Virus record (IMG/VR): IMGVR_UViG_3300035156_000067
Location: 1 to 52,287 of that record
Length of the DNA stretch: 52,287 nt
Strand: one strand, 5' to 3'
Origin: a virus
Lineage: Duplodnaviria; Caudoviricetes
The position numbers and the translations under genes are program-made. Each line of letters begins with the position of its first letter. The first letter of the stretch is position 1. The notes beneath the pieces are model-generated. The model saw only the letters and a program-made list of their open reading frames with translations, ran no database searches and was not told the origin of the DNA. This document shows positions 4,813-35,038 of the stretch, in pieces.

Positions 4813-5187
4813 ATGAGCATTCTGACCGGCGTCGCTGCTGACGCACTCCGGGACTTCGGCGACGACTTCGAAAACGGCACCCTGTTCGTGCCGGGCGTCC
4901 GCAACTCGGACGGTCAGGGCGGCTTCACCGCGGGACAGGCGACCCCGCATCCCTGCAAGGTGCTGCTGACCAGCTATTCCGACTACCGCCGCCTCGCTCT
5001 CGGCATTCCCGCCACCGACCGGCTGGTGCTGGTCCTCGGGGCGAGCCTTCTCGCTGGCGTCATCCCGGCCAAGGGGCATCAGGTCCGCGCTCCCGATCCT
5101 GCGGCCGGCGGAGCGCTCCAGACGTTCGACATCGTCGCGGTGACGGGTGATCCCGCCTCCGCGCTCTACAAGCTGCAGGCCCACTGA
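4813..5187 (+). CDS. Head closure/stopper protein
   Basis: Synteny; C-terminal DPA.ALY.LQ pattern. Confidence 0.65.
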   Translation: MSILTGVAADALRDFGDDFENGTLFVPGVRNSDGQGGFTAGQATPHPCKVLLTSYSDYRRLALGIPATDRLVLVLGASLLAGVIPAKGHQVRAPDPAAGGALQTFDIVAVTGDPASALYKLQAH

Positions 5188-9924: not shown

Positions 9925-10502
9925 GCCTGATCCTTCCGACGGAGCCCGCACCCAACAACATGGGCGTGGCGCTGATCTCCACCAAGAACACTCTCGTTCC
10001 AGCCACGGGTGGCGATGAGCAGGAGATCCGCCGCAAGGGCAGCAAGTACGCCCTGACCTATTCCATGCCGGTGATGACGTACTCGACCTCGATGGCCTGG
10101 GACGATCTCATGGCCGAAGGCGACACGGCAGTGATGCGGGTTTTTCAACCCGGTTTCGACACCGGCACGCCGGGCACGCCTCTGGTGAACGGAGCTGGTC
10201 AGATCGGATCGGCGATTGTCGTTGACGGCCTGACGCCCGGCTATGTCATCCGCAAGGGCCAGTTCCTGTCGATCGTCACTGGCGGCCAGCGGTTCCTCTA
10301 TCGCGCGCGGGCCGATGTGACCGCTACGGGCGGTTCGGCTACGATCCTGCTCCGCACCCTCCTGCGCCGCCCGCCGGCTGATAACGCCGTGGTCGAGATC
10401 GCTCAGCCCATGATCGAGGGCTTCGTGCGCGATCTGGGCGAATGGTCGGTCGGCATTGAGCGTCTGGTCGGGCTCAAGTTCACGATCCGTGAGCGCGAAT
10501 AA
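9921..10502 (+). CDS. Distal tail protein
   Basis: Directly follows the tape measure gene (GTGA overlap). Confidence 0.65.
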   Translation: MSLILPTEPAPNNMGVALISTKNTLVPATGGDEQEIRRKGSKYALTYSMPVMTYSTSMAWDDLMAEGDTAVMRVFQPGFDTGTPGTPLVNGAGQIGSAIVVDGLTPGYVIRKGQFLSIVTGGQRFLYRARADVTATGGSATILLRTLLRRPPADNAVVEIAQPMIEGFVRDLGEWSVGIERLVGLKFTIRERE

Positions 10503-21876: not shown

Positions 21877-22087
21877 GTTTGCAGCCGCGCTTCCGATCCA
21901 GTGCGCCCGTGGGGATAACCCGCGCCGGTTTGCAGCCGTATCATTGAAAACAGCCAACAAGTCACGGCCTGCAAATCCTTGCACCCCGGTTCGATTCCGG
22001 GTCAGGCCTCCATCGCGGATTCAAGGGGTTAGGTCGATTTCTGCCTAACCCCTTGGTCTCCGGTTTGCATAGGAGTTTGCAAACTCC
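21877..22087. repeat. Integrase arm-type repeats around attP
   Basis: GTTTGCAGCCG at 21877 and 21928; GTTTGCA at 22063 and 22075; palindrome GGAGTTTGCAAACTCC at 22072-22087; 12-bp inverted repeat at 22022-22055. Confidence 0.65.
21969..22012 (+). mobile_element. attP: attP core: 3' half of tRNA-Cys(GCA)
   Basis: CTGCAAA anticodon loop, CCCGG-TTCGATT-CCGGG T-arm and GGCC-TCCA end; no 5' half; abuts the integrase 3' end. Confidence 0.88.
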
Positions 22088-23129
22088 GTTCCCGCTTTGG
22101 CCTGTAGAACCGCGCCCAGAGGCGAGTCGCGTTCTTGATCGCAACAGCTAGGCGATCGACATAGACGCCTTGCGCCCCCCTCTCGTCGGCTATTGGGTGA
22201 CCGCTGCAATAAGCCGTTTCCTCAGCCGTCCAGCCCATCCCCCGGCGGCTGGTGATGAAGGTTCCGCGTAGGTCGTTGAAGGTCCGGTCCTCAACCCCGG
22301 CCTTGGCCGTCATAAGCTGGAAGTCGGAGCGGAGCCCGTTGCCGTTCGGGTTGAAGGGCCGCTCGCGGGGCGTCGAGAGTATGGTCGTGCATACCCGAGG
22401 CGCATCAGCCAACATCGCAGCGAGGGTCGGAGAGATTGGGATCGCGACCGGGACGCCGGTTTTCAGGCGCTTGGACACGATGACGTTGGACTGGATGGCG
22501 GACCACGGCAGGACGAGAAGGTCTTCCTGCGAAAGGCCAGTCTCGAGCGCGAGGATGACGGCCCGCTGGATCGCCGGCGATGACGCGGCGAGGATGGCCT
22601 TCACCATTTCAGGCGTCCACACCTTCTCAGTCCGATCAGCCTTGTAAACATCCTCGATGCCGCTGGCCCGGTTGTGCGTCACCAGCCCGCGCTTGCCGCA
22701 CCACGTCAGCATGGCGCCCAGAACCGAGATTGCGTAGTCCGCCTGCCGGGGCGAGGTCTCGGCCATCTTGTCCCGCCACTCGTAAAGGACGCCCGCGATC
22801 TTCGGCGACTGGATGGCGGCGATGGAGAGCTTGGCGAACCGGGCATGGATCTTGTCGAGTTGCCGGTGATAGTCGCGCTGGGTCAGGGGGCGCAGCTTTT
22901 TGAACTCGGGCGAGGACTTGTAGCGCCAGATCAGGTGCGAGACCTTCCCCTCCTCCGGGGCCCGCCTCAGGACCTCGGCAAGGTTGAAGTGGAAGTCGGG
23001 ACCGCCTTCGCGGCCAAGCGCCTCCATGCCCTCCCCACGGCCATAGTAGCCGTATCGAATGACCTCCCCGCTCGCGAGGGTCTTCTTCTGAAACCAGACG
23101 CCTTTAGGCAGCGTCGTTCTGGATTTCAC
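22029..23129 (-). CDS. int: Tyrosine integrase
   Basis: KTG, FNDLRGT and SGH motifs with a downstream Tyr; adjacent to attP. GTG at 23129 is the likely start. Confidence 0.88.
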   Translation of the reverse strand: MKSRTTLPKGVWFQKKTLASGEVIRYGYYGRGEGMEALGREGGPDFHFNLAEVLRRAPEEGKVSHLIWRYKSSPEFKKLRPLTQRDYHRQLDKIHARFAKLSIAAIQSPKIAGVLYEWRDKMAETSPRQADYAISVLGAMLTWCGKRGLVTHNRASGIEDVYKADRTEKVWTPEMVKAILAASSPAIQRAVILALETGLSQEDLLVLPWSAIQSNVIVSKRLKTGVPVAIPISPTLAAMLADAPRVCTTILSTPRERPFNPNGNGLRSDFQLMTAKAGVEDRTFNDLRGTFITSRRGMGWTAEETAYCSGHPIADERGAQGVYVDRLAVAIKNATRLWARFYRPKRERSLQTPMQTGDQGVRQKST

Positions 23130-23310
23130 AGCGTAGTGCCTCGATCTCAGCATCAATGCTGTCTGGCGTATCATTGGCGGCGGTCGGGCGCACGGTGACG
23201 ATGGGCTTGCCTTCGCCGTCGAACCTAATGTCGTAGCTCTCTACGCCAGCCAGTCGCATGGCGGATGCAACGCGGGCGAGCTCTACCTTGCGAAACCGGG
23301 CCGCGCTCAT
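23104..23310 (-). CDS. Putative excisionase/recombination directionality factor
   Basis: Small gene overlapping the integrase start; ARF...EL.R...A pattern. Confidence 0.55.
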   Translation of the reverse strand: MSAARFRKVELARVASAMRLAGVESYDIRFDGEGKPIVTVRPTAANDTPDSIDAEIEALRCEIQNDAA

Positions 23311-23513
23311 CTCGTGTCCTTGGTGGCGAGATTTGGTTTCACTCCGCCTGACGGTTTATCCGGTTCTTCGTACCAGCCCGCCCTTACGGCCTGCTTTGAC
23401 AGGTTTCCGCTCGCATCGAATACGTCCACGCCATTGATGTGAAACGACCCATTTCGCATTCCCATGCAATCGGACAGGCGCTGAGATCCGTCCTTACTTA
23501 CGAAGGTCGTCAT
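23307..23513 (-). CDS. Hypothetical protein
   Basis: GAAGGAG RBS; ATGA overlap with the next gene. Confidence 0.6.
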   Translation of the reverse strand: MTTFVSKDGSQRLSDCMGMRNGSFHINGVDVFDASGNLSKQAVRAGWYEEPDKPSGGVKPNLATKDTR

Positions 23514-23592
23514 GACGACGCTCCTTCATCGGAATTGTTAGCTCCGCCTGACGGCTGCGTACCTAGCGGGTCTGGTGAGGGGGTCCGGGTCA

Positions 23593-23847
23593 TCACTCGC
23601 CCTCGTGTTCGATGCGGCGCATGGCCAGCGGTTCGTCGGCGTCGAGCGTGAACATCCAATAGTGGAACTCAACGGCATCAGCGATTTGTTGGACCGGGAC
23701 GCGCAGGGCCGAAGCGGCGTCACCGAACGTGGGCGCGGTCCATTTGCCGGTGTCGGCATAGCGCTTCTCACCGGCATTGATGGCCCATTTCTGAACCTTG
23801 TTGGCGAAGTCGGCCATTGCGTAATCAAAGTCGGAAGCGGCGGTCAT
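23593..23847 (-). CDS. Hypothetical protein
   Basis: ATGA-coupled chain of small genes. Confidence 0.6.
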   Translation of the reverse strand: MTAASDFDYAMADFANKVQKWAINAGEKRYADTGKWTAPTFGDAASALRVPVQQIADAVEFHYWMFTLDADEPLAMRRIEHEGE

Positions 23848-24176
23848 TCGCCCGCTCCTTCAGACAGGATGGCGTCGATGATGGCGGTGAAGGATGAGCG
23901 AACATGGTCGGGTGTCGTCTGCATGTACGGGAGCTCGTCACGCCCCGCGCAGACCATCTCGACGTCAGGCTCTCGGATTGCCAGTAGGCCGGCGCGGGCG
24001 AGGTCGAGATAGAGATCGGGATTATTGTCGTAGAGCGTCGCGCCCTTGAAACGATCGCCATCACGTTGAGCAATGGCCCGGCCCATTCTCTCGAGCATGG
24101 TGGCGGGCGTGTCCGATTGCTCGGTAGGTATGAGCCCGTCGGGCGAATGAAACCCTGACCCTGATCCGCTAGTCAT
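23844..24176 (-). CDS. Hypothetical phage protein
   Basis: M.ERM.RAI...AR....AIREP...M pattern; ATGA overlaps at both ends. Confidence 0.65.
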   Translation of the reverse strand: MTSGSGSGFHSPDGLIPTEQSDTPATMLERMGRAIAQRDGDRFKGATLYDNNPDLYLDLARAGLLAIREPDVEMVCAGRDELPYMQTTPDHVRSSFTAIIDAILSEGAGE

Positions 24177-24472
24177 GATGCAACTCCGAGGGCTTGGTCT
24201 CGGGCTTGGTCGAACGAAACGTCGAACAGCGTTTCCATGTCGTCCACCAGCGTGAAAGCCGCGCTGTTTCCGTTCTGACGATTGATCAGGGCCGTGTGGT
24301 ACTTGGTCAGCGCCGCTCTACAATCTGCTAGAGCTTCGAGAAGGGCGGTGGCGTCGGCGGTGCTGACCAGCGTCAGGGAGCCTTCAGGGTCGCCCGCGTA
24401 GTGTCCGAACGGGCTAGACAGGCTTTCCTTCAGCCTCTCAATCAGCTCTGCGGTGTTGGCGGGGACGGTCAT
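24173..24472 (-). CDS. Hypothetical protein
   Basis: ATGA overlaps. Confidence 0.6.
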   Translation of the reverse strand: MTVPANTAELIERLKESLSSPFGHYAGDPEGSLTLVSTADATALLEALADCRAALTKYHTALINRQNGNSAAFTLVDDMETLFDVSFDQARDQALGVAS

Positions 24473-24639
24473 GCCTTACCACCGGATTGCTGAACACGAT
24501 CGAACGCCTCTTGTAGCTCTGCGAGGACGCTGGGGCTGATGACGTAATCTTCGTTGTCAGGCGTCACCGCGCCGACCGGCTCAGCGTTCTCCAGAACTGC
24601 AAAAACCGCAGCTTGCAGATCGTTCATTGCATCACCCAT
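24469..24639 (-). CDS. 56-aa hypothetical protein (not in the ORF track)
   Basis: MGDAMNDLQAAVFAVLENAEP...SGGKA; completes the coupled chain. Confidence 0.55.
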   Translation of the reverse strand: MGDAMNDLQAAVFAVLENAEPVGAVTPDNEDYVISPSVLAELQEAFDRVQQSGGKA

Positions 24640-25081
24640 TGGTCTTGCCTTCTTTGTTGGAGGTTATGGTTTCATTTGCTTCGCAAATACCGCAGGTGCT
24701 GGAGGAAACGCTCTGATTTACCTTTGGTTTGGCCACCTTGATCTTTGCCGATCCAAGCTTAGTCAGTTTTGCCCTGCTCGCGCTGTCTGGATGAATGCCG
24801 AGAAGGCCCAGACCGCATAGGTGCGCCACCGTTTCCACTGGCCACGGCCCACCTTTTTCGGAATCTGCCTGAAACTCCGACCAGTTCGCCCGCGCCCACC
24901 ATCCTAGATCGGTCTCCCGGCTAAGGGGGCAAACCTTGCTGGCCTGCTTTCGGATCAGACCATAGCCCTTCGCTGCACTTAGGCAGGCCATCAGCACAGG
25001 TGGCAGTTGACTGGAAACTCCCGCCTCCCGCTCGGTGGGCATGGAGCCGCTTGGCGGAATAATCCCAGAATACTCGGTCAT
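24632..25081 (-). CDS. Hypothetical protein bracketed by inverted hairpin repeats
   Basis: Coupled overlaps; repeat copies lie in both termini. Confidence 0.6.
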   Translation of the reverse strand: MTEYSGIIPPSGSMPTEREAGVSSQLPPVLMACLSAAKGYGLIRKQASKVCPLSRETDLGWWARANWSEFQADSEKGGPWPVETVAHLCGLGLLGIHPDSASRAKLTKLGSAKIKVAKPKVNQSVSSSTCGICEANETITSNKEGKTNG

Positions 25082-25266
25082 GCAGGGGTCTCTGGGTTGG
25101 TGCGGAGAGACGCGAAGTAGGCGTATTCGTCACGGACACAGCGCGCCACAGATCGAGAGTTCCAGTACCAGCCTTCGCCGTATACGTTCCGGTTCAGAGC
25201 GTCTTTGACTTGCCAGCCGCCGTCATCCACGACGCGAAAAGGCGCCACGAAAACTATCTCGTTCAC
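25078..25266 (-). CDS. Hypothetical protein
   Basis: GTGA/ATGA overlaps; GAGG RBS. Confidence 0.6.
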   Translation of the reverse strand: MNEIVFVAPFRVVDDGGWQVKDALNRNVYGEGWYWNSRSVARCVRDEYAYFASLRTNPETPA

Positions 25267-25703
25267 TTCGTCACCTCTTCATTCGGGAGAGGGGGAAGGG
25301 CTGCGAACTTGAGCGGGCGAACAAGGCGGATGCGGGGGCCGCCATCAGGGCGCTCGTGCGTCAGGCGATTATGCCAGATGCCCATGAACTGTTGTTCGAA
25401 AGCCCAAGCGTCAGCGTCTCCGGAAGAGGTGGCTAGGGCGGCTACGACCACCTTGTGGATGTCCGTCTTCTTGGCTGCCGAGAGAGACAGGAAGCCCTCG
25501 ATGCCCGCGACGCAGCGATCGTATGCGTCCTTTTTGACAGCCTCCCCGCCCCCTTCCGGTGCGGATTGAACGGGGGATGCTGCGTAAAGGGGTGTTCCGA
25601 TTGGCACGTCAGCGGACCTGAAAGCCGCCATCGTGAAGCCGTCCGTTCCGGGCATTGAGCCCGCGACGCCGACCGGCACGACTTTATAGGGGTGGGCGGT
25701 CAT
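25263..25703 (-). CDS. Hypothetical protein
   Basis: ATG at 25703 overlaps the upstream stop. Confidence 0.6.
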   Translation of the reverse strand: MTAHPYKVVPVGVAGSMPGTDGFTMAAFRSADVPIGTPLYAASPVQSAPEGGGEAVKKDAYDRCVAGIEGFLSLSAAKKTDIHKVVVAALATSSGDADAWAFEQQFMGIWHNRLTHERPDGGPRIRLVRPLKFAALPPLPNEEVTK

Positions 25704-25936
25704 TTCGAATATCCGAGTGCTGGAGTGATTGAGACGCGGGCCAGTCGCCAGCCCTTGCGGTAGGCGCGCTGCCACACCTTTGAGGTCGTGAGGCCGTCGT
25801 GTCCGCCATGCCGCCAGTCAGCCACAAATCTGGCCATAGACCCGGCGCGGGTTCCTGAGACGGAGTAGATGTCCACCTCGACAAAGCCCCATTCTGGCGG
25901 CGTCAGAACCGCCCATGCGAAGGTCACGGCCCTCAC
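25700..25936 (-). CDS. Hypothetical protein
   Basis: Coupled overlaps. Confidence 0.6.
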   Translation of the reverse strand: MRAVTFAWAVLTPPEWGFVEVDIYSVSGTRAGSMARFVADWRHGGHDGLTTSKVWQRAYRKGWRLARVSITPALGYSK

Positions 25937-26592
25937 GCCCCCTCTCCGCGCTTCGTATCGAGGAGGGCTCGCCGGGCGTTAATCTGCTCGACGGTCGCCC
26001 ATTCGTCAGGGGCCTTGGCGTTATCCCATCCGCCGTGTTCGTTCATGGCCTGCCAGCGACCCTTGATGCCGCGTCGGAACTGCTCGCTGGAGGGCTTGTA
26101 TGCCTGCCAGCGATACGGCGACCACGTATGCCCGTAGATCGGTTCGGCGGACCTCGGAGGTGCATCGGACCGCCATTCGATTTGAGCCTCCAGCTCCTTC
26201 ACCCGCTGGTCGTCAGGCGCGGCTAGCGTGGCTTTACGGTACGCGGCCCACGGCGTGTCAGGCGCACGCTCCCCCCGTTCGTCATCAGCTATTGATGGGG
26301 TGAGGGCGCCGCTCAGGGCGAGGATGGCGCGGAGGTCCAGAGCATTGACAACGACCGTGTCGCCCTCACGCCAATCGAACTCGTTGGCGGCGGAAGTCAG
26401 CCGCTCGACAGCCTCCCGCATCCCTCCGACATCACCCGCCTGCAAGGGAGGGGGTGGATAGACGGAGTTCATGCTGTTGGCGAAAGAGGTCGCGTCTCTC
26501 TTTTTGGAGAACCGCGCTATCGTCTGTCCGTCGCTCTCGATGGCCCATCCATCAGGATCGCCTTGAACGACTACGACACCCACGCCGCTCAC
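25933..26592 (-). CDS. Hypothetical mosaic protein
   Basis: Coupled overlaps; Trp-rich C-terminal module. Confidence 0.6.
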   Translation of the reverse strand: MSGVGVVVVQGDPDGWAIESDGQTIARFSKKRDATSFANSMNSVYPPPPLQAGDVGGMREAVERLTSAANEFDWREGDTVVVNALDLRAILALSGALTPSIADDERGERAPDTPWAAYRKATLAAPDDQRVKELEAQIEWRSDAPPRSAEPIYGHTWSPYRWQAYKPSSEQFRRGIKGRWQAMNEHGGWDNAKAPDEWATVEQINARRALLDTKRGEGA

Positions 26593-26870
26593 GCCTTCAC
26601 CTGTTGAGCTTGGTTTACTTCGCCAAGAGGCTCCGTACCGCAGGTGCTTGGGGATGCGGCGGGACCAATGATCTTGATCGTGCAGATGGTCTCGCCCTCA
26701 GATACGATGTCGGCCTGCATGCCGATGCCGATGTGATCCATGACGGCCTTGAGAGCGTCGCTCGTTAAGTCGTAGCGAGGTTCCTTGAACCCCATCCCAT
26801 CCTTGGTTGGTCGTCCGGCGAAGATGCGACCCGAAAGCGCGGCGGTCGCGAGGCGGATGGGATTGCTCAT
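26589..26870 (-). CDS. Hypothetical phage protein
   Basis: LSGRIFAG...DLTSDAL.AV motif; coupled overlaps. Confidence 0.65.
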   Translation of the reverse strand: MSNPIRLATAALSGRIFAGRPTKDGMGFKEPRYDLTSDALKAVMDHIGIGMQADIVSEGETICTIKIIGPAASPSTCGTEPLGEVNQAQQVKA

Positions 26871-27778
26871 TTTGAGACCTCTTCATTCGGGAGTTCCCAC
26901 CCGGCAGTCGCCGCAGCGAGGTTTTCTACGTGGCTCTCCCGCGTCCCGGTCCAGAGCGCTGGAACAGCCTTGACCTCAGGACCAATAGCGTTTGCTCGAT
27001 CCGACCATTCGACGGCAGTTTCGTAGTTCGGAGCCGGATAGATGTCGTCCGGGCCGCGAGCATGCATCATCCAGAGCAGGTAACGAGCGGTATCCCATTG
27101 ACCGGCGGTCTCGTCCGCCTGCTCGGTGGGTACGAAGCCCGTCTCGGGCGTAGTGAAACCCTTATCCTTCTCAGTAGGGAGTGAAGAGCTTGGCTTACTC
27201 GCCGAAGACGGCTCCGTACCCGCCGTCGATGGGGATGCAGCGCCACTCAGACGGAAGGCGATGATGCAGCAAGGGCCGCTCGGCACGTTCCACGATGCGG
27301 CGTCGGACGGCCTGTTCATCCACGACCGCTTCCAATCATCGACATAGTCCACCATCAGCCCCGGAACCGGGTTCTCCCCTCCGCTCCACGGGATCCAGCC
27401 TTCTGCGTCAGGACGACCGATGAAGGCGAATGACTTCGGCGATGAGTTTCCGAACGACGTGCCGTTCAGGTAATCGCCCGACCAGCCGTCGCCGTGGATG
27501 AAACGAAGCCATGCGACCCGCCCGTCTCGATGGCGGATAAGGTCACCCGCCTCGCCAACCGGCGGCATGGCCTGACCGGAAGCATCAGCCACAGTCTCGG
27601 TGGGGATTTCCAAGTCGCTCAGCGTCGGTCCGGGGTCCTGACCCATCGCTATCAGCTTGGCGGCATCATCTTGCAGGGCCGCGTCCATGACGGGATCGGT
27701 GCTGTAGATGCCGGTCCCGGTGGGGATTTCCTGCAAGGAAATAGAACCAAAATCTTCCATGGGGTGGTCGGTGTTCAT
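26867..27778 (-). CDS. Mosaic protein reading through a back-to-back repeat junction
   Basis: ATG at 27778 overlaps the upstream stop; GWIPWSGGENPV...IIAFR module fused to a GPDD...AP module. Confidence 0.65.
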   Translation of the reverse strand: MNTDHPMEDFGSISLQEIPTGTGIYSTDPVMDAALQDDAAKLIAMGQDPGPTLSDLEIPTETVADASGQAMPPVGEAGDLIRHRDGRVAWLRFIHGDGWSGDYLNGTSFGNSSPKSFAFIGRPDAEGWIPWSGGENPVPGLMVDYVDDWKRSWMNRPSDAASWNVPSGPCCIIAFRLSGAASPSTAGTEPSSASKPSSSLPTEKDKGFTTPETGFVPTEQADETAGQWDTARYLLWMMHARGPDDIYPAPNYETAVEWSDRANAIGPEVKAVPALWTGTRESHVENLAAATAGWELPNEEVSK

Positions 27779-28140
27779 GCTTGCACCTGAGCTTTGCGTT
27801 CGCGACGTTCGCGGTTGCGACGTTGTTCGCGAGATTCCGGCCGAATGTTCTGGACCTTCATGCGAAGGGTGCGCGGCATCCACGTCACGTCAGAGGACAG
27901 AAGCCCTCTGCCCATGATTTGACACTGGCCAGCCGCAGCGCCGATCCGCATCCCCTCCGAGCGCGAGACAAAGCGGCCTTCCGACGTCCAAAACCCGTAA
28001 GTGTCGCTCATGTCCTTCTGATAAGGATCGGGGCGACCAAGGCTCGCGCGTAGCTCCCAATGCTCTCGAAAGCCGTGATGCGTGACGCCATCGCCATCGA
28101 TCAATGCAACCTCGACAAGTCGTTCTGTTGGTTTCGTCAT
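27775..28140 (-). CDS. Hypothetical phage protein
   Basis: GF.TS.GRFVSR.E...I...AGQ...L.S.D.W motif. Confidence 0.7.
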   Translation of the reverse strand: MTKPTERLVEVALIDGDGVTHHGFREHWELRASLGRPDPYQKDMSDTYGFWTSEGRFVSRSEGMRIGAAAGQCQIMGRGLLSSDVTWMPRTLRMKVQNIRPESREQRRNRERRERKAQVQA

Positions 28141-28311
28141 TCAGAAAAGCTCCATCTGTTGAGAGTTGGCGCGATCAGCCTCAAGGGCTCGGCGCTCTGC
28201 GTTGGCGGCCCAGGTATCGAGGACCGAGGCGAAGGCACGATCGCAGCGCATGTCCGACTGCCGGCGCACATCGGCCTCAGTGCGGAGAACAGCGGCGGTG
28301 TGGCGGCTCAT
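28141..28311 (-). CDS. 56-aa protein ending QMELF (not in the ORF track)
   Basis: ATGA-coupled to the MTase; resembles 43283-43465. Confidence 0.65.
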   Translation of the reverse strand: MSRHTAAVLRTEADVRRQSDMRCDRAFASVLDTWAANAERRALEADRANSQQMELF

Positions 28312-29321
28312 GCGGCGAGCCTTTCGGCTGGGGCCGCGTCCATGTAGGCACCGATCAGGTTCGTGAACGCCTCGACGTCGATCGCGTCACCGAACCCTGA
28401 CAGGAGGCCCATATTTTTGGGATCCGCATCAGCGAGCGGGCTAAGTCCGGGTTCAACCGGGCGCCAGAGTCCATCACGGCCGAGGAGCCAGTCAGGGCCG
28501 CCGCCATATTCAGGGTCTGGTTCGGCCCGAATGGATCGCCACCCTGCCCCCGATGACCATCCGTCACAGTCGGAGTAGGCCAGACGGACAGAAGGGCCTG
28601 ATCGCCCAGATAGAGCGGCACCGTGCTCTGGTTGGCGTTGCGCTTCCGGAAGTCCGCGCACTTCGCCATAGTCTCGTCCGAGCGCGGGCGATCCGTCACG
28701 GCTGGGGTCGCCCAACCGGATGCCCGTGCCGCCATATCCAAGGTCACCTGAGCTTTCGACCCGTCCGGTTTTCGGCCAGTGACCGTCGTGCCATGGGGCA
28801 CGGTCTGACCACCACTCGGCGTTGTCGGCGTCGGCCACGAAGCCAAAGCGCTGGCGTCGGTGCGCGCCTCCGAAGCCCGCAGCCGGTATATCAGGCGTCC
28901 CGATGGCGTAACGCTCGCCCTCCAGGTCACCTGAAACAAGATCGAGCCACTCGATCGCGTTCGCAGATTGCTCACCAAAGATGCAGACAGGCCGGCGCTG
29001 GCGGATGAGCCGAAACCATTCCGGCCATAGGTGGCGCGGGTCGTCAAATCCGAGGCCGAGCCCGGCTTCCGAGAAGGGGCCGCAGGGGCAAGAGCCTGTC
29101 CAAACAGGTCGGTCATCTGGCCATCCGGCACGACGCAGGCAGAGGCTCCAGAGACCGATCCCGGCGAAGAAATGATGCTGGTCGAAACCGGAGAGGTCGT
29201 CGGGTTGGACTTCCTCGATCGAGCGCTCGTCAACGATGCCATGAGCGATCTCGCCCTCCTCTATGAGATTGCGAAGCCACGCGGCCTTCTTGCGGTCGAA
29301 CTCGTTGTAATAGGCGGCCAC
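28308..29321 (-). CDS. DNA (cytosine-5) methyltransferase, catalytic polypeptide
   Basis: FFAGIG (I), GSCPCGPFS (IV), GEQ (VI), HRRQR (VIII) and GFGDAI (X) motifs. Confidence 0.88.
   Translation of the reverse strand: MAAYYNEFDRKKAAWLRNLIEEGEIAHGIVDERSIEEVQPDDLSGFDQHHFFAGIGLWSLCLRRAGWPDDRPVWTGSCPCGPFSEAGLGLGFDDPRHLWPEWFRLIRQRRPVCIFGEQSANAIEWLDLVSGDLEGERYAIGTPDIPAAGFGGAHRRQRFGFVADADNAEWWSDRAPWHDGHWPKTGRVESSGDLGYGGTGIRLGDPSRDGSPALGRDYGEVRGLPEAQRQPEHGAALSGRSGPSVRLAYSDCDGWSSGAGWRSIRAEPDPEYGGGPDWLLGRDGLWRPVEPGLSPLADADPKNMGLLSGFGDAIDVEAFTNLIGAYMDAAPAERLAA
28355..29116 (-). CDS. Nested alternative-frame MTase subunit (WxTP repeats plus motif IX-like segment)
   Basis: Open frame of up to 295 codons wholly inside the MTase gene; three W[PA]TP modules; LNPDLARSLMRIP..W. 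Start is uncertain (ATG 29116 assumed). Confidence 0.7.
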   Translation of the reverse strand: MTDLFGQALAPAAPSRKPGSASDLTTRATYGRNGFGSSASAGLSASLVSNLRTRSSGSILFQVTWRASVTPSGRLIYRLRASEARTDASALASWPTPTTPSGGQTVPHGTTVTGRKPDGSKAQVTLDMAARASGWATPAVTDRPRSDETMAKCADFRKRNANQSTVPLYLGDQALLSVWPTPTVTDGHRGQGGDPFGPNQTLNMAAALTGSSAVMDSGARLNPDLARSLMRIPKIWASCQGSVTRSTSRRSRT

Positions 29322-29355
29322 GGTCAGCCCTCCCCTTGCGTAACGGAGGGGGTCT

Positions 29356-29535
29356 TCATCCTTCTGCTCCGGGATTTTGATGGTCTATTTCGCGTTGCGA
29401 AATCCCCACCGAGAGCGTGTCGGCGTTATCGCTTACTGGACGCATCACCTCGGGAAGCCGGTCTAGGCCGACGAGATGGATGCCGATGGCCACGGCCTGA
29501 AGCTCAGCGGCAAGGCGGGCGTTGGAGACGGTCAT
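29356..29535 (-). CDS. 59-aa hypothetical protein (not in the ORF track)
   Basis: ATGA-coupled to the upstream MTase. Confidence 0.5.
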   Translation of the reverse strand: MTVSNARLAAELQAVAIGIHLVGLDRLPEVMRPVSDNADTLSVGISQREIDHQNPGAEG

Positions 29536-30422
29536 GCGGCCACGCTGACGTTGGCGAACATGCCCTGCTCATCGCTGATGCGACGGCGAGCGATCTCGGC
29601 ATATTCGGGGTTCAGCTCGATCAGGACGGCACTGCGTCCGAGACGATCAGCGACAAGTCCGGTCGTGCCAGCGCCGCCAAATGGGTCAAGTATCGTGTCG
29701 CCCTCGCTACTCGAGCAGACGATGCAGCGCCTTGCTATTTCGGGCGTCATTGGCGCGGGATGCTCAGTCGCGCCCGATGGCGAGACCCTCCAAACACTTG
29801 AGCTAAACCAGTCCTCGCCCGGATTGCGGACGCGGCTTGGGCCATTAGGGGTCAGCAGAAAAATGTAAGAATGTGAGACGGACGGGCGGTCCTGCCGAGG
29901 CGGTTCGGTGGCCGTGCCTTTATCCCAGATGATCGTCTTGCGGAGATACCACCCATCGGCCCGGAGGCGGTCGGCGACCTGAAACGGAGTCAGCGAGAGG
30001 TCGCGAACCTTGTACCCCTTCGGCGGCGACCGCCATCCCGTGCGCTGTTGCAGGCTGGTCAGTTTATGGCGCTTGGCGGCCCTGCTCCCGCCGCCGCCGT
30101 TTCCGCCGGCGGCATAGGTATCGCCCAGCTCGATCCACAGCGATCCGTCTTGCGCAAGCGTCCGCCGTACCTCTCGCATGACTTCAACCAGAGAGTCGGC
30201 GAAGTCTGCCGGACACCCCTCCGTGCCAAGCTGTCCGTCCGCTTCGTAGTCACGTTGCCGCCAGAACGGTGGGCTGGTTACACAGGCCGTCACGCTTCCC
30301 GTGGCGACGTCAGCGAGCCGGTCCCGACAGTTGCCCGTGAGGAGTGACAGTGACGTCTGCTCGGTAGGTACTCGACGGTCTTCCGGCGAGTGAAACCCAA
30401 CCTTTCCATCAGGATATGTCAT
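29532..30422 (-). CDS. DNA amino-methyltransferase (N4-C/N6-A, beta class)
   Basis: TSPPF catalytic motif precedes HPA and LDPFGGAGTT SAM-binding motif. Confidence 0.9.
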   Translation of the reverse strand: MTYPDGKVGFHSPEDRRVPTEQTSLSLLTGNCRDRLADVATGSVTACVTSPPFWRQRDYEADGQLGTEGCPADFADSLVEVMREVRRTLAQDGSLWIELGDTYAAGGNGGGGSRAAKRHKLTSLQQRTGWRSPPKGYKVRDLSLTPFQVADRLRADGWYLRKTIIWDKGTATEPPRQDRPSVSHSYIFLLTPNGPSRVRNPGEDWFSSSVWRVSPSGATEHPAPMTPEIARRCIVCSSSEGDTILDPFGGAGTTGLVADRLGRSAVLIELNPEYAEIARRRISDEQGMFANVSVAA

Positions 30423-30787
30423 AGCGTGGGCTCCGAAGCTTTGGCGGCAGCTCGGAGAGCCTGAACGACTTCAGATTGGGTGCGCTTGGGGGCGTCGTTG
30501 AAGCCCATAGGGGAGCAGCCGTGCACGGCTATGAACGCGGCTTGCAGGTTAGCGCGTAGATCACCATGCTCCACATATCTGCGGCCCAGAACCTTCTCAA
30601 AGGCCCCGTCTGCGCACCAGCAGGCAGCCTTCGGTTCGTCGCCGAAGTCCACGATACGTCCCGCCGAGTCGCGGGCCCACGCATGCTGTATCCAAGCACC
30701 CGGCTTATCCAGCAGATCAGCAGCAGCGTTCAGAACACCCGCCACACCCTCGCCAGACCCTGAAGCCTCTAGGCTGGAGTTATCCAT
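30419..30787 (-). CDS. Hypothetical phage protein
   Basis: AADLL...W.Q...CWCA.GA...FND...RT..EV..ALR pattern; GGAG RBS. Confidence 0.7.
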   Translation of the reverse strand: MDNSSLEASGSGEGVAGVLNAAADLLDKPGAWIQHAWARDSAGRIVDFGDEPKAACWCADGAFEKVLGRRYVEHGDLRANLQAAFIAVHGCSPMGFNDAPKRTQSEVVQALRAAAKASEPTL

Positions 30788-31019
30788 TAGTTTTGCTCCG
30801 GGGCTGCTTCTTGGCTGCAGGGCTCGGACGGGCATGCACCCGGTCGACGACGAACTCCTGACCGCTCAACGGCGCGGTGTGTCCGCCCCGGAACAGGGCG
30901 GCAGCGACCAAGTCTCGGTTGGCGACGAGCTTTGACCAGACCTCCTCAACCTCGGCGGACGTCGGGAACGTCTCGCGACTGTGGATGCCGATGATCGTGA
31001 CGAGTTTGTAGTCGGCCAT
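30780..31019 (-). CDS. Hypothetical protein flanked by 16-bp direct repeats
   Basis: CCATTAGTTTTGCTCC at 30784 and 31016. Confidence 0.6.
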   Translation of the reverse strand: MADYKLVTIIGIHSRETFPTSAEVEEVWSKLVANRDLVAAALFRGGHTAPLSGQEFVVDRVHARPSPAAKKQPRSKTNG

Positions 31020-32278: not shown

Positions 32279-33163
32279 TCAGCCCGCCGCTTTGATGGCG
32301 GCCTCGAGCGCCTTCGCCTTGTCGAGGTCGGTCGCCATCAGGACCGCGAACGTCGCCTTGGTCTTCCGGTCGGACTCGAGGAACGCGATCTGCTCCGGCG
32401 TGAAGAACGGCAGGTCAGAGATCAGCTTGTCCGCCCATCCGATGACATCGACAGCCAGGCCCGACCCTTCCGAGGTCTCAGCGGGCCCAGCTGCCGCGTC
32501 TTCACCGGCGCTCGGGGGGCGGTCACCGGGGGAGGTCGTGTCGATCACTTCGCCCGTGTCGGGGTCATGGTCGGTTTCATCGAAAGCGGATTGGTCAGCC
32601 TTGGTAGCGGCGGCCTTCAACTCGGCGTCGAGCGTGGGCTTGGCGGCGACCTTCTCTTCGCGACCGAGGCCGGTCCACCACGCGGTCAGTTCGGCCGATC
32701 CTCGGGCTGCGGCGGCGCGGCCAGCGATCAGGATGGGGCGCAGGTCGATCGTCGAGGCCCCGCCCTTCACCGACGGCAGGGGCTTCACGGTGAACGGCGC
32801 CCGCTTCCCGCGAGTGACCATGAGCGCCATCGTGGCCTCACGATCGATGCCGGACATGTGGGAGATGCGGACGCCGCCGACCGCGTCGCTGCCGAAGCGG
32901 ACCTTGTCATCGCGATAGACGGTCATGCGCTGGCCGATGAAAGCCTTGCCGTCCTCGCCCCAGACCTTGGCCATGACGCGGCGCATCGACTTGCAGGGCT
33001 TGTAGGGCCGACCGTCCCCGCCTTCCCAATGGACTGCGACGGGTTGATCGGCGGCATCCAGAAGGCGCACATCGGTGATGGTGATGGTCATCGGCCCGCC
33101 GATTAGGTCGTCGGCGTTGAGCTGGTCGCTCTTGGCGATGATGGTGGGACGTAGATCGATCAT
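32279..33163 (-). CDS. Putative recombination/ssDNA-binding partner of the exonuclease
   Basis: KSDQLNADDL...KPCKSMRRV...GGVRISH domain; ATGA-coupled to YqaJ; DPDTGEV motif. Confidence 0.55.
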   Translation of the reverse strand: MIDLRPTIIAKSDQLNADDLIGGPMTITITDVRLLDAADQPVAVHWEGGDGRPYKPCKSMRRVMAKVWGEDGKAFIGQRMTVYRDDKVRFGSDAVGGVRISHMSGIDREATMALMVTRGKRAPFTVKPLPSVKGGASTIDLRPILIAGRAAAARGSAELTAWWTGLGREEKVAAKPTLDAELKAAATKADQSAFDETDHDPDTGEVIDTTSPGDRPPSAGEDAAAGPAETSEGSGLAVDVIGWADKLISDLPFFTPEQIAFLESDRKTKATFAVLMATDLDKAKALEAAIKAAG

Positions 33164-33855
33164 ATCGTGATCTCCTGTTCGTACCGGCGCTCGGTCGGGA
33201 TCAGGCGGACGCCCGATTTGCAGACGCGCTGGAACTCGGCGTGCATCTGGTTGATCTTGATTTCGGCGTCGGTCGCGATGGACACGATCGCCTCTTGGAT
33301 GGTCGGGTCGGGGTGGACGCGAACCGTCGCCATCGGCAGCCCGGCGCTGTAGCTGATGAAGTCCAGCCACTTCCGCTCGCTGACCAGAAGGCCGGTCTGG
33401 CACTGGATCAGGAACTCGGCAGGCACCTTGTCTTCGGCTACCGACTTGAGGATCGTCTCGACCTGGAACTTGTGCTTGCGGGACTTGCACTCGATCAGCC
33501 CGTCGTCGCCGACCAGTCCATCCGGCGAATAGCCGATGGTGAAGCCCCAGCGGTCGTTCGTGATGAAGCCGCAATCCTGAACCGGCTCGTAGTGCTCGGC
33601 ATAGGCAATGCGGGCGTCGATCTCGTCTTCGTGGCCGCGAAGCATATCGAAGCCGGTGTAGGTCTCCTCGACGTAGCCAGCGATGCGCTGCGACACGAGC
33701 GTGAAGAGGTGGGCGCGCTGGTTGTCGTTCGCGGCCGCCTTCATCGTGGCGGGCGTGACCAGCAAGCGCATCTCGCTCGCCGTGAGGACGCCCCGGCGGA
33801 TTTCGAGCCAGTCGCCGGAGCCCTGAGCGAGGTCGTGGTGATATTTGACGGCCAT
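33160..33855 (-). CDS. YqaJ/lambda-exonuclease family nuclease
   Basis: QGS..WL..R.G.LTAS, SPDGLV and IECK motifs. Confidence 0.92.
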   Translation of the reverse strand: MAVKYHHDLAQGSGDWLEIRRGVLTASEMRLLVTPATMKAAANDNQRAHLFTLVSQRIAGYVEETYTGFDMLRGHEDEIDARIAYAEHYEPVQDCGFITNDRWGFTIGYSPDGLVGDDGLIECKSRKHKFQVETILKSVAEDKVPAEFLIQCQTGLLVSERKWLDFISYSAGLPMATVRVHPDPTIQEAIVSIATDAEIKINQMHAEFQRVCKSGVRLIPTERRYEQEITI

Positions 33856-33859
33856 CGGC

Positions 33860-35038
33860 TCAGAACCTGATGCTGACGGCCGGCACGTCACCGGCGGCGA
33901 TGGCTAGGACGACGGATTTCGCGGCGGCTTCACCGATGCCGAGCGCCATGATCGCGGACTTGGCGGCGCCCATGATCTTGCCACGGTGCGCCACGTCAGC
34001 GGCGCGAGCCTCAGCGGCAGCCTGAACACGGGCGGCCTCGGCGGCGACGCTGCGGGCCTCAGCCTCACGGGCAGCGGCTTCCTTGGCGATGCGGGCCGTC
34101 TCAGCCGCGCGAGCCGCTTCCGCCTCGTCCGCCCGGCGCTTCTCAGCGGCAAGGGCCTCGGCGTGGACCCGTTCAGCAGCAACCCGATCCTCGTTCGCCT
34201 TGGCTTCGGCAGCCTGACGCGCGGCGTCCTCGGCAGCCTTGGCGGCGGCGGCGATACGATCCTCAGCGGCAGCAGCCTCGGCGGCGGCGCGAGCCTCGGC
34301 TTCGGCACGGTGGCGCTCAGCGGCCTCCGCAGCGGCCTTGGCTTCCGCTTCCGCCCGTTCCCGCTCGGCGCGTTCTGCAGCTTCGGCCCGCAGCCGGTCG
34401 AGTTCGGCTCGGTCAGCAGCTTCGCGTTGCAGCCGGGTCAGGGCCGTTTCGAGCGACTGGATGGCGTTGCCCCGCGCCGTGGCGGCGAGAGGGGCCCAAT
34501 CCTGGAACACGTCGGCGTCGAAGGTCAGGGCGCGGAGATAACCGAGACGGCTCTCGACATCAGCCACTGTTTCGTCAGCCGACACAATGCCGTCGTGCTG
34601 CAGCCGGTCCATCGCTTCCTTCACGGTAGCGAGGCGGGTTTCCTCGGCGGCTTCCCATGCCGTCAGCGGCTTGCGGACCTCGACGGCCAGATCTTCCAAC
34701 CGACCCTTGATCTCGCGCCGGGCCGCATCGACCTTGTTGACCGTGGCCTGAGCCTCTTCCTTCAGGAGCTTCCCGGCGGCGTCGATGGCGGTCTTGGTCT
34801 TGGTGACCTTGAACGCCATCGCCTTGATCGCCGCTCTGCCCTTCTCCGAGGTCGTGTCAGGGACCAGCTTGTCGGTCTCTTCCTTGATGGCCTCGTAGAA
34901 CTGGTCAAAACGCTGGCGATCCAGCAGCACGAGGCCGGGATCGGCGTTGACCGCGACGACGATGTCTGTGGTCCGGGGCGTGTTGTCGTTCGTCTCGTCA
35001 GCAGGAGCCGTGTCTAGGGCGCGAAGGGGCTGGGCCAT
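33860..35038 (-). CDS. Coiled-coil Ala/Glu/Arg-rich phage protein
   Basis: KGR.AI...A.KV.K.K and VR.PLT.WE motifs; low-complexity helix; GAGGAG RBS. Confidence 0.75.
   Translation of the reverse strand: MAQPLRALDTAPADETNDNTPRTTDIVVAVNADPGLVLLDRQRFDQFYEAIKEETDKLVPDTTSEKGRAAIKAMAFKVTKTKTAIDAAGKLLKEEAQATVNKVDAARREIKGRLEDLAVEVRKPLTAWEAAEETRLATVKEAMDRLQHDGIVSADETVADVESRLGYLRALTFDADVFQDWAPLAATARGNAIQSLETALTRLQREAADRAELDRLRAEAAERAERERAEAEAKAAAEAAERHRAEAEARAAAEAAAAEDRIAAAAKAAEDAARQAAEAKANEDRVAAERVHAEALAAEKRRADEAEAARAAETARIAKEAAAREAEARSVAAEAARVQAAAEARAADVAHRGKIMGAAKSAIMALGIGEAAAKSVVLAIAAGDVPAVSIRF

Follow-up and report, generated by a model that had tools for sequence, protein, structure and literature searches.

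The small DNA hairpin repeats of this phage genome are a genuine family: within the window (the whole 52,287-nucleotide stretch of viral DNA analyzed here, which represents a temperate phage with Brevundimonas as the probable host), a conserved hairpin is present in about a dozen copies at the starts and ends of accessory genes. The copies share a structure and a characteristic placement, they are confined to the accessory regions of prophages, and the gene content of related phages differs at their edges. We favor, at about even confidence, the interpretation that these elements are portable structured junction modules which border accessory genes in a temperate-phage pool, probably that of Brevundimonas, and at which gene bodies are swapped.

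Detection and structure of the hairpin family

A sequence-only reading of this DNA had proposed about 14 related elements. A covariance model (R1) trained solely on two copies from other viral contigs, with no window copies included, was used to scan the entire window on both strands with filters off. Six of the proposed copies were matched at E <= 0.011 (whole window) and another four more weakly (E from 0.21 to 0.74), so that proposed copies make up 10 of the 12 top matches; the other two, 19909(-) with E 0.44 and 51991(+) with E 0.65, look like chance. With a second covariance model (R2), also run on the window with filters off, 12 of the 14 copies were found within the top 14 matches, every one of the top 11 was a proposed copy located in the 23.3-30.8 kb region, and the best match beyond this region had E 1.6. 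The copy at 24667(+) ranked 14th (E 2.3) and is backed instead by 92% identity over 37 nt with a copy in contig L013 (17131-17162, itself E 0.037). The elements that had been described as 'degenerate' (25698) and 'partial' (27611) were recovered by no model, and the proposed family therefore stands with 12 of its 14 members. Both covariance scans also agree with the original observation that core genes carry no copies. In addition, a sequence-only HMM trained on four minus-strand copies and one foreign copy yielded, as its best non-training matches, the plus-strand copies at 26612 (E 0.0066) and 27196 (E 0.029); given that a profile with mainly minus-strand training finds plus-strand copies, the two sets represent one element on both strands. 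The copies in the window are:

23334-23382, plus strand: antisense copy with an internal insertion, weak, in the C-terminal tail of a 68-aa ORF (23307-23513), 23 nt ahead of the next start; R1 E 0.74, R2 E 0.26
23534-23570, plus strand: antisense copy 20 nt ahead of the next start (23513), in the spacer that separates this start from the stop of an 84-aa ORF (23593); R2 E 0.013 (absent from R2 training), R1 E 0.47
24120-24155, minus strand: sense copy 21 nt past the start of a 110-aa ORF (23844-24176), with a sense copy at the same place in the L002/L011 homolog; R1 E 2e-4
24667-24700, plus strand: antisense AT-stem copy that lacks the internal loop, in the C-terminal tail of a 149-aa ORF, 26 nt ahead of the next start; R2 only
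25031-25067, minus strand: sense copy 14 nt past the start of the same 149-aa ORF (24632-25081); R1 E 9e-5
26610-26646, plus strand: antisense copy in the C-terminal tail of a DUF7446 gene (26589-26870), ending 17 nt short of the next start; R1 E 0.007, HMM E 0.0066
27122-27161, minus strand: sense copy, right half of a back-to-back junction inside a 303-aa ORF, joining two modules of the ORF without a stop or start; R1 E 6e-9
27190-27227, plus strand: antisense copy, left half of the same junction, inside the 303-aa ORF; R1 E 0.011
27716-27749, minus strand: sense copy, AT-stem variant, near the start of the 303-aa ORF (26867-27778), beginning 11 nt past an ATG; weak alone (R1 E 0.44, R2 E 0.65), supported by the cluster and the gene-start position
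29380-29413, plus strand: antisense AT-stem copy in the C-terminal tail of a 59-aa ORF (29356-29535); R1 E 0.21, R2 E 0.095
30360-30398, minus strand: sense copy within the 22-residue N-terminal extension of an N6/N4 DNA methyltransferase (29532-30422); R1 E 0.0026, R2 E 3e-5
30749-30787, minus strand: degenerate sense copy at the N-terminus of a DUF6197 gene (30419-30790, assigned from Pfam), in the same position as the sense copy of the DUF6197 homolog in L005 (4214-4250); R2 E 0.26

The element is an extended hairpin, or imperfect DNA palindrome, of ~35-45 nt, the pyrimidine-rich strand of which consists, in order, of GG, TTC, AY, TCC, a variable GC stem with its loop, TCC, RT, A and CC, with a tail close to C-ACCGAG after the final CC. 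The conserved boxes, of ~11 and 15 nt, are thus separated by a stem that varies among copies. In a set of 44 copies from 27 sources searched, 150 of the 152 stem cells hold a standard pair and none holds a wobble pair; 43 stem changes are double-sided and none is one-sided (wobble). The Y (5' box) and R (3' box) positions, which are not pairs in the model, combine as UA in 24 copies and CG in 20, with no unpaired case among the 44, and thus covary without exception. Together, these data bear out the claim that stems differ in sequence while pairing is kept. A mismatched internal loop is also kept in nearly all 44 copies. Given that the element occurs in both orientations and lacks wobble pairs, it is probably as DNA that the hairpin is maintained.

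Placement at gene junctions

The junction layout comprises an antisense copy, 14-30 nt that hold the ribosome-binding site, the start codon, 0-24 nt and a sense copy; most junctions contain only one half, either the antisense or the sense copy. By our reading of the loci, sense copies begin 0-24 nt past a start codon in 13 of 15 cases and antisense copies end 14-30 nt ahead of the next start in 8 of 10, in agreement with the earlier assignment of minus-strand copies to positions just inside gene 5' ends and of plus-strand copies to 3' ends. Neighboring reading frames traverse the copies, which are passively translated as N- or C-terminal tails outside the conserved protein body. The GFxSP...PTEQ and SPSTxGTEP peptides noted previously are indeed shared, but as by-products of the DNA element: because the element is read in all three frames, the conservation lies in the nucleic acid rather than in the peptide. 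For example, the 5' box of the copy at 27122-27161 is read in a frame different from that in the copies at 24155 and 30398, and the copies at 26610 and 27190 are read in different frames because the DNA similarity continues over a 1-nt length difference. By the same reading, the 3' box is in one frame in 13 of the 15 sense copies; the commonest frame renders the R-T-A position as a GTA or ATA codon (3.2% of Val and 5.7% of Ile codons in this phage, respectively), and neither box contains a stop codon in any of the three frames. The preference for one frame, and the strict polarity by which sense copies lie at gene starts and antisense copies at gene ends, would also be compatible with a role in translation.

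It is possible, though on balance unlikely, that the hairpins act primarily as cis-regulatory RNA. An upstream antisense copy and a downstream sense copy would then enclose the site at which ribosomes load on each accessory cistron, and would act in translational coupling, start-region shielding, or processing or stability; their connection with gene swapping would be incidental, arising from the similarity among copies. The tight positioning of copies relative to start codons, their strict polarity with respect to transcription and the predominance of one 3' box frame among sense copies are all compatible with such a role, and so are the observations that distant relatives keep a hairpin with a different stem at the same gene and that the back-to-back junction (27122-27161 and 27190-27227) folds as one long hairpin (-61.9 kcal/mol, z -4.5) around an SD-like stretch. 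However, the sense and antisense RNAs would differ, with pyrimidine-rich and purine-rich internal loops, respectively; the complete lack of wobble pairs is unusual for an RNA helix selected on one strand; seven of eight folds of single copies with their flanks are no better than shuffled sequences (z -1.6 to +0.7); ribosomes would melt the hairpins given that the copies are translated; and the element matches no Rfam family.

Gene-content differences at element edges

Within the probable host genus, the family is clustered in prophage-like regions and was detected in 10 of 151 Brevundimonas genomes. In two near-complete related viral contigs, all copies fall in a single short region, namely 7 of 7 within 22.4-25.6 kb of a 38 kb contig and 3 of 3 within 2.0-7.0 kb of a 37 kb contig.

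Comparison of homologous genes among the relatives shows that the element can be present or absent at either end. In the family of the 59-aa gene, L039 has both copies, L005 only the sense copy, the window only the antisense copy, and L007 and L009 neither. Similarly, one gene with a conserved body has both sense and antisense copies in L037, only the sense copy in L013 and a plain leader in L012, and the 73%-identical L001 homolog of the N6/N4 methyltransferase begins past the sense leader and has no element there. An identical stretch of ~90-100 nt is common to L011 and L039 (a single BLAST match of 89 nt, 100%). It takes in the last part of the upstream gene, the stop/start overlap and the entire sense copy; the identity stops at the 3' edge of the sense copy, and the proteins downstream (101 and 484 aa) show no similarity past the leader. 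In this one sharp case, the 100%-identical unit common to two unrelated contexts is the junction itself, not a gene. More generally, of 15 in-register similarities found between genomes and overlapping a copy, 11 end no more than 9 nt from its 3' edge, a count that involves some circularity, since conservation is what defines the element; the only informative breakpoints are the five of these 11 in which the similarity extends 13-51 nt upstream of the copy and stops at the 3' edge. The 183-aa gene common to L010, L011 and L013 is followed in each by a sense copy, behind which the body differs in all three. These comparisons support the expectation that gain, loss and replacement of genes in relatives map to element edges. 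Some junctions that differ between relatives have no copy, for instance the window's border between methyltransferase and 59-aa gene, and in L012, L014 and L017 three different bodies follow a common plain leader that has no hairpin, which implies that gene starts can be swapped with no need of the element.

Under the favored interpretation of the elements as junction modules, the common boxes would serve as short homology patches, crossover at which, mediated by phage (e.g., a YqaJ-type exonuclease) or host recombination functions, would result in gene bodies being gained, lost or exchanged behind a standard junction; the hairpin may additionally shield the translation start region from pairing with the adjoining gene body. 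Recombination between diverged sequences has been proposed (PMC2327257) as a possible basis of phage mosaicism. The contiguous homology offered by the element is short, with boxes of ~11 and 15 nt split by the stem, which makes it a poor substrate for ordinary homologous recombination. Homology alone explains neither the retention of a hairpin with a conserved mismatched internal loop nor the first joining of a new gene body to a copy. Two recombination genes are encoded in the window:

22029-23174, minus strand: integrase at the operon end; PHROG phrog_1 integrase E 1e-27, with no Pfam match at E <= 0.1 and, in a six-frame search, none to PF00589
33160-33891, minus strand: YqaJ-type recombination exonuclease, upstream of the repeat-bearing accessory genes; Pfam PF09588 E 4e-13, PHROG exonuclease E 2e-24

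The exonuclease is a candidate for short-homology recombination. The integrase and the YqaJ module had both been put forward as candidate recombinases of the repeats, and we found no tie of either to them.

The sequence-only reading had interpreted the elements as ends of mobile mini-cassettes. What holds of this proposal is the structured family restricted to the accessory region, with inverted sense/antisense pairs that bracket one or two genes (in the window, L037, L039, L005 and L013) and with edges that coincide with gene-content changes; movement through structured single-stranded DNA ends, in the manner of attC or HUH/REP elements, did not gain support. It is quite unlikely that the elements are structure-specific recombination sites, with the folded single-stranded hairpin recognized and the conserved tail cut by some phage or host enzyme, such that sense-gene-antisense units or junctions are excised and inserted as in-frame cassettes, similarly to attC sites or HUH-nuclease ends but outside those families. 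The architecture of the element (conserved boxes around a variable stem, plus a mismatched loop and a single-stranded tail that are both conserved), its wobble-free occurrence in both orientations, the inverted pairs, the sharp break from 100% identity to unrelated sequence exactly at the tail end and the L011/L039 junction common to otherwise dissimilar contexts would all fit such sites. Against this stand the lack of a Y1/HUH transposase or serine recombinase in the window, and of any window protein common to the seven element-bearing genomes compared; no co-occurring recombinase emerged, and the contigs of two public runs, one of which may be the source of this DNA, contained no circles, deletions, inversions or alternative joints. 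Furthermore, no near-identical copies exist in the window, hence no sign of recent within-genome copying, the start and stop codons fall outside the sense-to-antisense units, and the four combinations of end pieces in the 59-aa gene family are not a product of simple cassette excision. For the favored swapping explanation, too, no recombination event was seen directly, the two public runs being contigs.

Selfish miniature palindromic insertions, in the style of MITEs or Rickettsia palindromic elements, that spread among phage genomes and survive only at gene ends, where in-frame insertion is tolerated, appear very improbable. Such insertions would account for palindromic copies in both orientations, for in-frame translation (as in the Rickettsia elements described in PMC10969869), for variable presence at the ends of homologous genes, and for the back-to-back and gene-free arrangements. 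Nevertheless, neither near-identical copies within the genome nor target-site duplications were seen, the window search found no transposase, frame use is non-random (13 of 15 sense copies) even though all box frames are stop-free, orientation strictly tracks gene polarity, the mismatched loop is conserved, and matches are rare and clustered. A peptide tag or linker as the conserved feature, with the DNA similarity secondary, is hardly tenable: PTE-type peptides do recur in early proteins, and PTE is also found at a window N-terminus (28120-28131), where it is written with other codons, and in the plain leader common to L012, L014 and L017, but the use of three frames and both strands already contradicts this reading, rare codons are retained, a synonymous change at a His codon and an Ile/Val change some ten codons away covary without exception, and homologous proteins without tails exist.

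Comparison with known repeats

Membership in the attC, REP/RAYT and PeSL groups was considered and rejected, the defining features of attC and REP/RAYT being absent. Integron attC sites conserve pairing and flanking boxes around a variable centre and lie at the borders of promoterless genes; they are longer, occur once per cassette with the same facing, and have a characteristic core site and a partner integron integrase. The element described here resembles attC in its conserved pairing and boxes, variable centre and gene-border position but has none of the length, single occurrence per cassette, uniform facing, core site or integron integrase. REP and REPIN sequences, like the phage element, are imperfect palindromes that are short and GC-rich and sometimes form inverted doublets; REPs lie outside genes, reach tens to hundreds of copies per chromosome and are paired with a Y1 transposase (RAYT), whereas the phage element is present in few copies, confined to prophages, translated and without a Y1 transposase in the window. 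REP elements are mentioned in PMC3184786.

Rickettsia palindromic elements and intragenic MITEs are likewise in-frame palindromic repeats that add tolerated peptide segments; according to the review PMC10969869, these elements are ~150 bp long and lie in unrelated metabolic genes of a bacterial chromosome, whereas the present element is 35-45 nt long, occurs only at ends of phage accessory genes and shows strict polarity and a preferred frame. The start-associated sequences (SAS) and extended SAS (ESAS) of Cluster K mycobacteriophages (Pope et al. 2011, PMC3203893) are also repeats at translation starts of many genes in a single phage group, and ESAS forms an imperfect inverted repeat whose spacer varies and whose function is given there as unknown. 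By that account, SAS/ESAS precede the start and, except where marked, all face the same way, and ESAS tends to stay with a gene family across genomes, whereas the present element lies downstream of starts or at gene ends, is translated, occurs in both orientations and varies on one family.

PeSL (promoter-early stem-loop) cassettes of T4-type phages (Arbiol et al. 2010, PMC2839356; PMC4122927) are intergenic units with a sigma-70-type promoter and a terminator, and exchange between units is reported to yield mini-circles (PMC2839356). In contrast, the present element has no promoter or T-run, is embedded in a translationally coupled operon and translated, occurs in both orientations and possesses a conserved internal loop, and no circles were seen. 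Nonetheless, both are short repeated stem-loop units among small accessory genes in variable, non-essential phage regions, and insertions, deletions and replacements between related phages fall at both.

The repeat family in the accessory region

The virus record has direct terminal repeats at its ends and is complete at 52,287 bases. From 22.0 to about 36 kb its genes lie on the minus strand, mostly with stop-to-start overlaps, and include the following two:

22029-23174, minus strand: integrase (PHROG phrog_1)
33160-33891, minus strand: YqaJ-type exonuclease (Pfam/PHROG match)

Other named functions encoded in or near the accessory region are an N6/N4 DNA methyltransferase, a C5 methyltransferase, DUF7446, DUF6197 and an RNase T-like exonuclease; most of the small genes between 23.1 and 31 kb gave no family match. 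A search for close relatives among GenBank phages matched only methyltransferase pieces, with none of the 80 matching records covering at least 80% of the query. The third-position GC content of the accessory genes at 23.1-31 kb is about 0.70-0.76, below the roughly 0.80 or higher of most structural genes, which fits a different or more mixed origin. At 32279-33891 (minus strand), the 431-residue frame listed from 33574 overlaps the YqaJ-type exonuclease frame by about 400 nt; the gene downstream of the exonuclease probably starts near 33163, belongs to a PHROG without an assigned function and occupies the place expected of a strand-annealing partner.

Taken alone, simple repeat finding and a 12-mer pattern (10 matches in the window against a shuffle mean of 5.9, with 10 or more reached in 8 of 100 shuffles) were unconvincing as evidence for a repeat family. 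A pattern scan of viral contigs supplied two foreign copies of the element, and a covariance model built from these two copies only (R1, with a 5-bp stem) was used to search both strands of the entire window with the filters switched off. At E <= 0.011, R1 matched six of the copies that a sequence-only reading had listed, four of them minus-strand copies (27161, 25067, 24155 and 30398) and two plus-strand copies (26610 and 27190), which establishes the repeat family that this reading had claimed. Four further listed copies (29380, 27749, 23534 and 23334) were matched at E values of 0.2-0.74, and only 2 of the 12 best R1 matches in the window fall elsewhere. A second covariance model built from 20 matches (R2) placed all of its 11 best window matches inside 23.3-30.8 kb, and five of these (23534, 29380, 30749, 23334 and 27716) were absent from the training set. 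The best new matches of an HMM derived from minus-strand copies were the plus-strand copies 26612 and 27196. Iterated nhmmer yielded 10-12 matches, with none in five shuffled copies of the database, and did not extend the family, for which the covariance models performed better; a fixed-pattern descriptor scan was dropped as too rigid, its six matches comprising three model copies and three probable chance matches. The copies listed at 25698 and 27611 were recovered in none of these searches.

Relatives of the 183-residue gene located upstream of the accessory region were found in four Brevundimonas records, and a model search of four such Brevundimonas genomes detected one copy in total. When 44 first-look candidates were scored per genome, a procedure that misses weak copies, 10 of 151 genomes of the genus showed 1-6 matches; in a family sample, with the same number of candidates scored per genome, matches were found in 3 of 151 genomes, two of which were already known. 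Multiple matches in one genome sit within 8-20 kb (six on contig 8 of genome G109 and three on contig 1 of genome G111, both from the host genus), and the copies in near-complete related viral contigs are limited to one short stretch each. The element is not a chromosome-wide host repeat. Its architecture is reminiscent of a CRISPR repeat, and no CRISPR-like regular arrays were detected among the model matches in the 151 genus and 151 family genomes.

Hairpin structure and conservation at the DNA level

At E <= 0.1, R2 identified 44 copies in 27 sources totalling 394 kb, with copy lengths of 32-49 nt in the alignment (A9). Across the 44 copies the modelled stem has a standard pair in 150 of 152 cells, and all four modelled pairs vary on both sides, with 43 double-sided changes and no one-sided ones, so that wobble pairs are absent from the modelled stem; these counts come from an alignment that was fitted to the stem and is hence biased toward pairing (MAFFT alignments misplaced the stems and were left out of the structure analysis). 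This bias does not affect the Y of the 5' box (CAY) and the R of the 3' box (RTACC), which are unpaired positions in the model and combine as UA in 24 copies and CG in 20, with nothing else among the 44. The adjacent A-U pair is kept in 43 of the 44 copies, the exception being a G-U. Together, the stem, the Y-R pair and the A-U pair make the element an extended hairpin, which consists, from the outside in, of GG/CC (present in 29 and 38 of the 44 copies, respectively), AY/RT, a mismatched TCC/TCC internal loop and a variable GC stem, with a 3' tail close to C-ACCGAG.

Covariation can be mimicked by shared descent. Apart from Y and R themselves, we saw no positions that set the UA and CG copies apart, and junction copies related to one another can differ in class (L010 versus L011 and L039; L numbers denote the related viral contigs and prophage regions compared with the window). 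The arms could also stay complementary through palindrome correction during replication, without selection, but a mismatched loop that stays the same in almost every copy speaks against such correction as the sole cause. The window junction 27190/27161 folds into one long hairpin (-61.9 kcal/mol, compared to -43.9 +/- 4.0 for shuffles); a single copy plus its flanks did no better than shuffled sequence in 7 of 8 folds. A C-rich run (29321-29360, minus strand) that immediately precedes the GTG start codon of the C5 methyltransferase can pair with the G-rich Shine-Dalgarno stretch, possibly forming a start-site-masking hairpin that is separate from the repeat family.

The peptides reported in the sequence-only reading as shared among the copies are real but secondary to a DNA element that is read in several frames. 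The copy at 27161 reads GGT TTC, and those at 24155 and 30398 read GGG TTT; between 26610 and 27190, DNA similarity persists past a 1-nt length difference, beyond which the reading frames differ. In locus L005, the copy at 4893 has a third frame at the 5' box; the copies L005:1681, L005:3208 and L037:8794 have a different frame at the 3' box, and the antisense copy L037:8060 is also in a different frame. By manual reading, the 3' box is in one frame in 13 of the 15 sense copies (those in gene 5' ends), and neither box has a stop in any frame. The most frequent frame reads the R-T-A position as GTA (23 of the phage's 723 Val codons) or ATA (31 of its 542 Ile codons), and the Y-R covariation pairs a synonymous His change with an Ile/Val change about ten codons off; selection on the protein cannot explain this covariation. 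The element is conserved at the DNA level, and is lineage-specific and structured. Two sense copies, L005:3208-3240 and L005:1681-1716, lie within long open frames and are not in the usual frame, and at L005:3208 a start codon sits directly on the copy, with its frame closing after 21 codons; these cases could represent fusion, or a frameshift caused by altered hairpin length.

Gene borders and differences between relatives

In a manual reading, which was used because an automated call of the coding strand from the longest open frame is too noisy in this GC-rich DNA, 13 of 15 sense copies begin 0-24 nt past a start codon, which itself overlaps the upstream stop or lies shortly behind it, and 8 of 10 antisense copies (those at gene 3' ends) end 14-30 nt ahead of the next start. 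Along the mRNA, the window contains a degenerate sense copy, a sense copy, an antisense copy, four more sense-antisense pairs and one extra antisense copy. The same placement rule is obeyed in the prophage regions L037-L041, and both halves occur at one junction, 30-48 nt apart, in the window (27190/27161) and in L037 (8060/7975). The 303-residue frame at 26867-27778 (minus strand) appears to consist of two once-separate genes fused via a back-to-back antisense/sense junction, where the stop and the start are lost and an SD-like stretch remains in the 30 nt between the copies.

The expectation that gene gain, loss and replacement among relatives would map to the repeats was borne out at L001, in a 59-residue gene family, at L011/L039 and at other loci. 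The L001 methyltransferase is 73% identical from residue 24, where it has its own ATG, and the element is absent. The 59-residue gene family occurs in four states: with both end pieces (L039), with the sense piece only (L005), with the antisense piece only (the window) and with neither (L007 and L009); the L005 sense copy that precedes the gene of this family matches the window position of a sense copy followed by the methyltransferase body. Another gene with a well-conserved body carries both a sense and an antisense copy in L037 and a sense copy alone in L013; in L012 it begins with a plain leader of ten residues. In the alignment of these three the end pieces fall outside the conserved body. 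The 183-residue gene occurs both with copies (L010, L011 and L013) and without them (L007, L008, L009, L012 and L015-L017), and downstream of it a sense copy is followed by a different body in each of L010, L011 and L013. In the Brevundimonas prophage loci L012, L014 and L017, a plain ten-residue leader without a hairpin, which looks identical in all three (~10471-10500), is followed by three unrelated bodies; therefore, swapping at gene starts is general here, and the element is one kind of standard leader.

The loci L011 and L039 are identical over about 90-100 nt (89 nt in a single 100% BLAST match), a stretch that runs from the final codons of the preceding gene through the stop/start overlap and the entire sense copy, and the identity stops at the final base of the tail. 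Upstream of this stretch the genes are only distantly alike, and the downstream proteins, of 101 and 484 residues, respectively, share similarity limited to the leader. An L010-like source of the gene body behind the L039 copy was considered and dropped (32% identity over 75 residues including the leader). Comparison of copies across genomes gave 21 similarities, of which 15 overlap a copy in register, and 11 of these 15 end no more than 9 nt from the 3' edge of the copy, a figure with some circularity, since conservation is what defines the element; five of the 11 extend 13-51 nt upstream of the copy, and four in-register similarities continue 11-90 nt into the gene body. These comparisons show that the element marks the borders of accessory gene bodies and points of difference among related phages.

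Possible role and relation to known systems

We infer that the element may well act as a crossover point, and the YqaJ-type exonuclease encoded here is a possible recombination function. Recombination between diverged sequences has been proposed as an origin of phage mosaicism (PMC2327257). Against a crossover role, the boxes are short for such recombination and the conserved loop is unexplained by homology.

A function chiefly in translation or RNA handling, which we consider unlikely, would fit the placement of the copies and the frame preference. A structure-specific recombination system acting at the hairpins, to which we would give somewhat less weight still, is consistent with the architecture, the use of both orientations, a stem free of wobble pairs and the abrupt end of identity at the tail. 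Under this rather doubtful scheme, the hairpins would be the ends of structure-specific accessory gene exchange, in which a host or phage enzyme would read the folded single strand, recognizing the stem, the mismatched TCC/TCC loop and the tail, and cleave where the tail ends, so that gene bodies or whole junctions would be moved in frame among phages with a common host. If true, this would amount to an integron-like cassette economy within translationally coupled phage operons.

The only recombinase found in the window is the phage-type integrase (PHROG phrog_1, no Pfam match); six-frame searches detected no serine recombinase in the window and no match to the Y1/HUH transposase (PF01797) in the complete virus record. 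The integrase shows strong PHROG integrase matches yet no Pfam model at E <= 0.1, and by eye its first conserved arginine box has S in place of the usual R; the enzyme could be a tyrosine recombinase that has diverged or is impaired. The search for a gene co-occurring with the repeat, suggested in the sequence-only reading, came up empty: when 70 window proteins were compared by tblastn with seven element-bearing genomes and eight other loci, no gene was found in all seven bearers, a weak negative because most loci are fragments. The element-bearing genomes differ in structural and replication genes. Contigs of two public DNA runs, one of them possibly the origin of this DNA, showed the reference arrangement only, with no alternative joints, insertions or deletions, and are uninformative on excision or expression.

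A selfish palindromic insertion seems improbable. MITEs and the Rickettsia palindromic element, which resemble the element in their in-frame presence inside coding sequence, have terminal inverted repeats and form near-identical dispersed copies with target-site duplications, whereas no copies within the window are near-identical and no such duplication was seen where a homologue is element-free. Programmed -1 frameshifting at the GGGTTTC start is rejected (the upstream frame ends ahead of the site, which antisense copies are unable to use), as are a tRNA-like or attP-like origin (the window is without tRNA or tmRNA, and no Rfam match was found at E <= 1 in 21-32 kb) and a promoter reading of the boxes, ruled out by eye from the consensus, in which a -35/-10 pair at workable spacing is absent.

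'Linker' sequences at gene borders have long been regarded as a means of modular phage evolution, and we know of few well-documented examples. The element family adds a linker case with an unusually clear structure, perfect covariation including a pair outside the model, strict placement about translation starts, several natural comparisons of one gene with and without end pieces, and one junction of ~90-100 nt that is identical in two otherwise unrelated prophage contexts. It is a defined sequence that is testable in a culturable host genus. In practical terms, the copies flag the beginnings and ends of accessory genes in these phages, and many small phage proteins have N- and C-terminal tails that fall outside the functional protein.

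Membership in the integron attC or REP/RAYT families, to which the sequence-only reading likened the element, fails on orientation, boxes, length, Y1 transposase and copy spread. An attC site is found once per cassette, in one orientation and at the gene 3' end, whereas the element occurs on both strands and at gene 5' and 3' ends; unlike attC in length and core-site boxes, the copies span 32-49 nt, have other conserved boxes and gave no Rfam match. REP/REPIN sequences with RAYT have a Y1 (HUH) transposase, of which the virus record contains none (no PF01797), and many extragenic copies over the host chromosome, whereas matches to the element are few and clustered (10 of 151 genus and 3 of 151 family genomes). 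No description of the element family was found in the literature searched. PeSL are intergenic and combine a sigma-70-type promoter with a terminator stem-loop, whereas the element lies inside reading frames and has no T-run; they are similar in that gene gain, loss and replacement between relatives occur at the repeats. SAS/ESAS differ in placement, given that sense copies of the element follow the start and antisense copies, on the opposite strand, precede the next start by 14-30 nt. Membership in the PeSL, ESAS or Rickettsia element families fails on at least one defining feature each, and the closest described case is the PeSL of T4-type phages, followed by the ESAS of Cluster K mycobacteriophages and the in-frame palindromic elements of Rickettsia.
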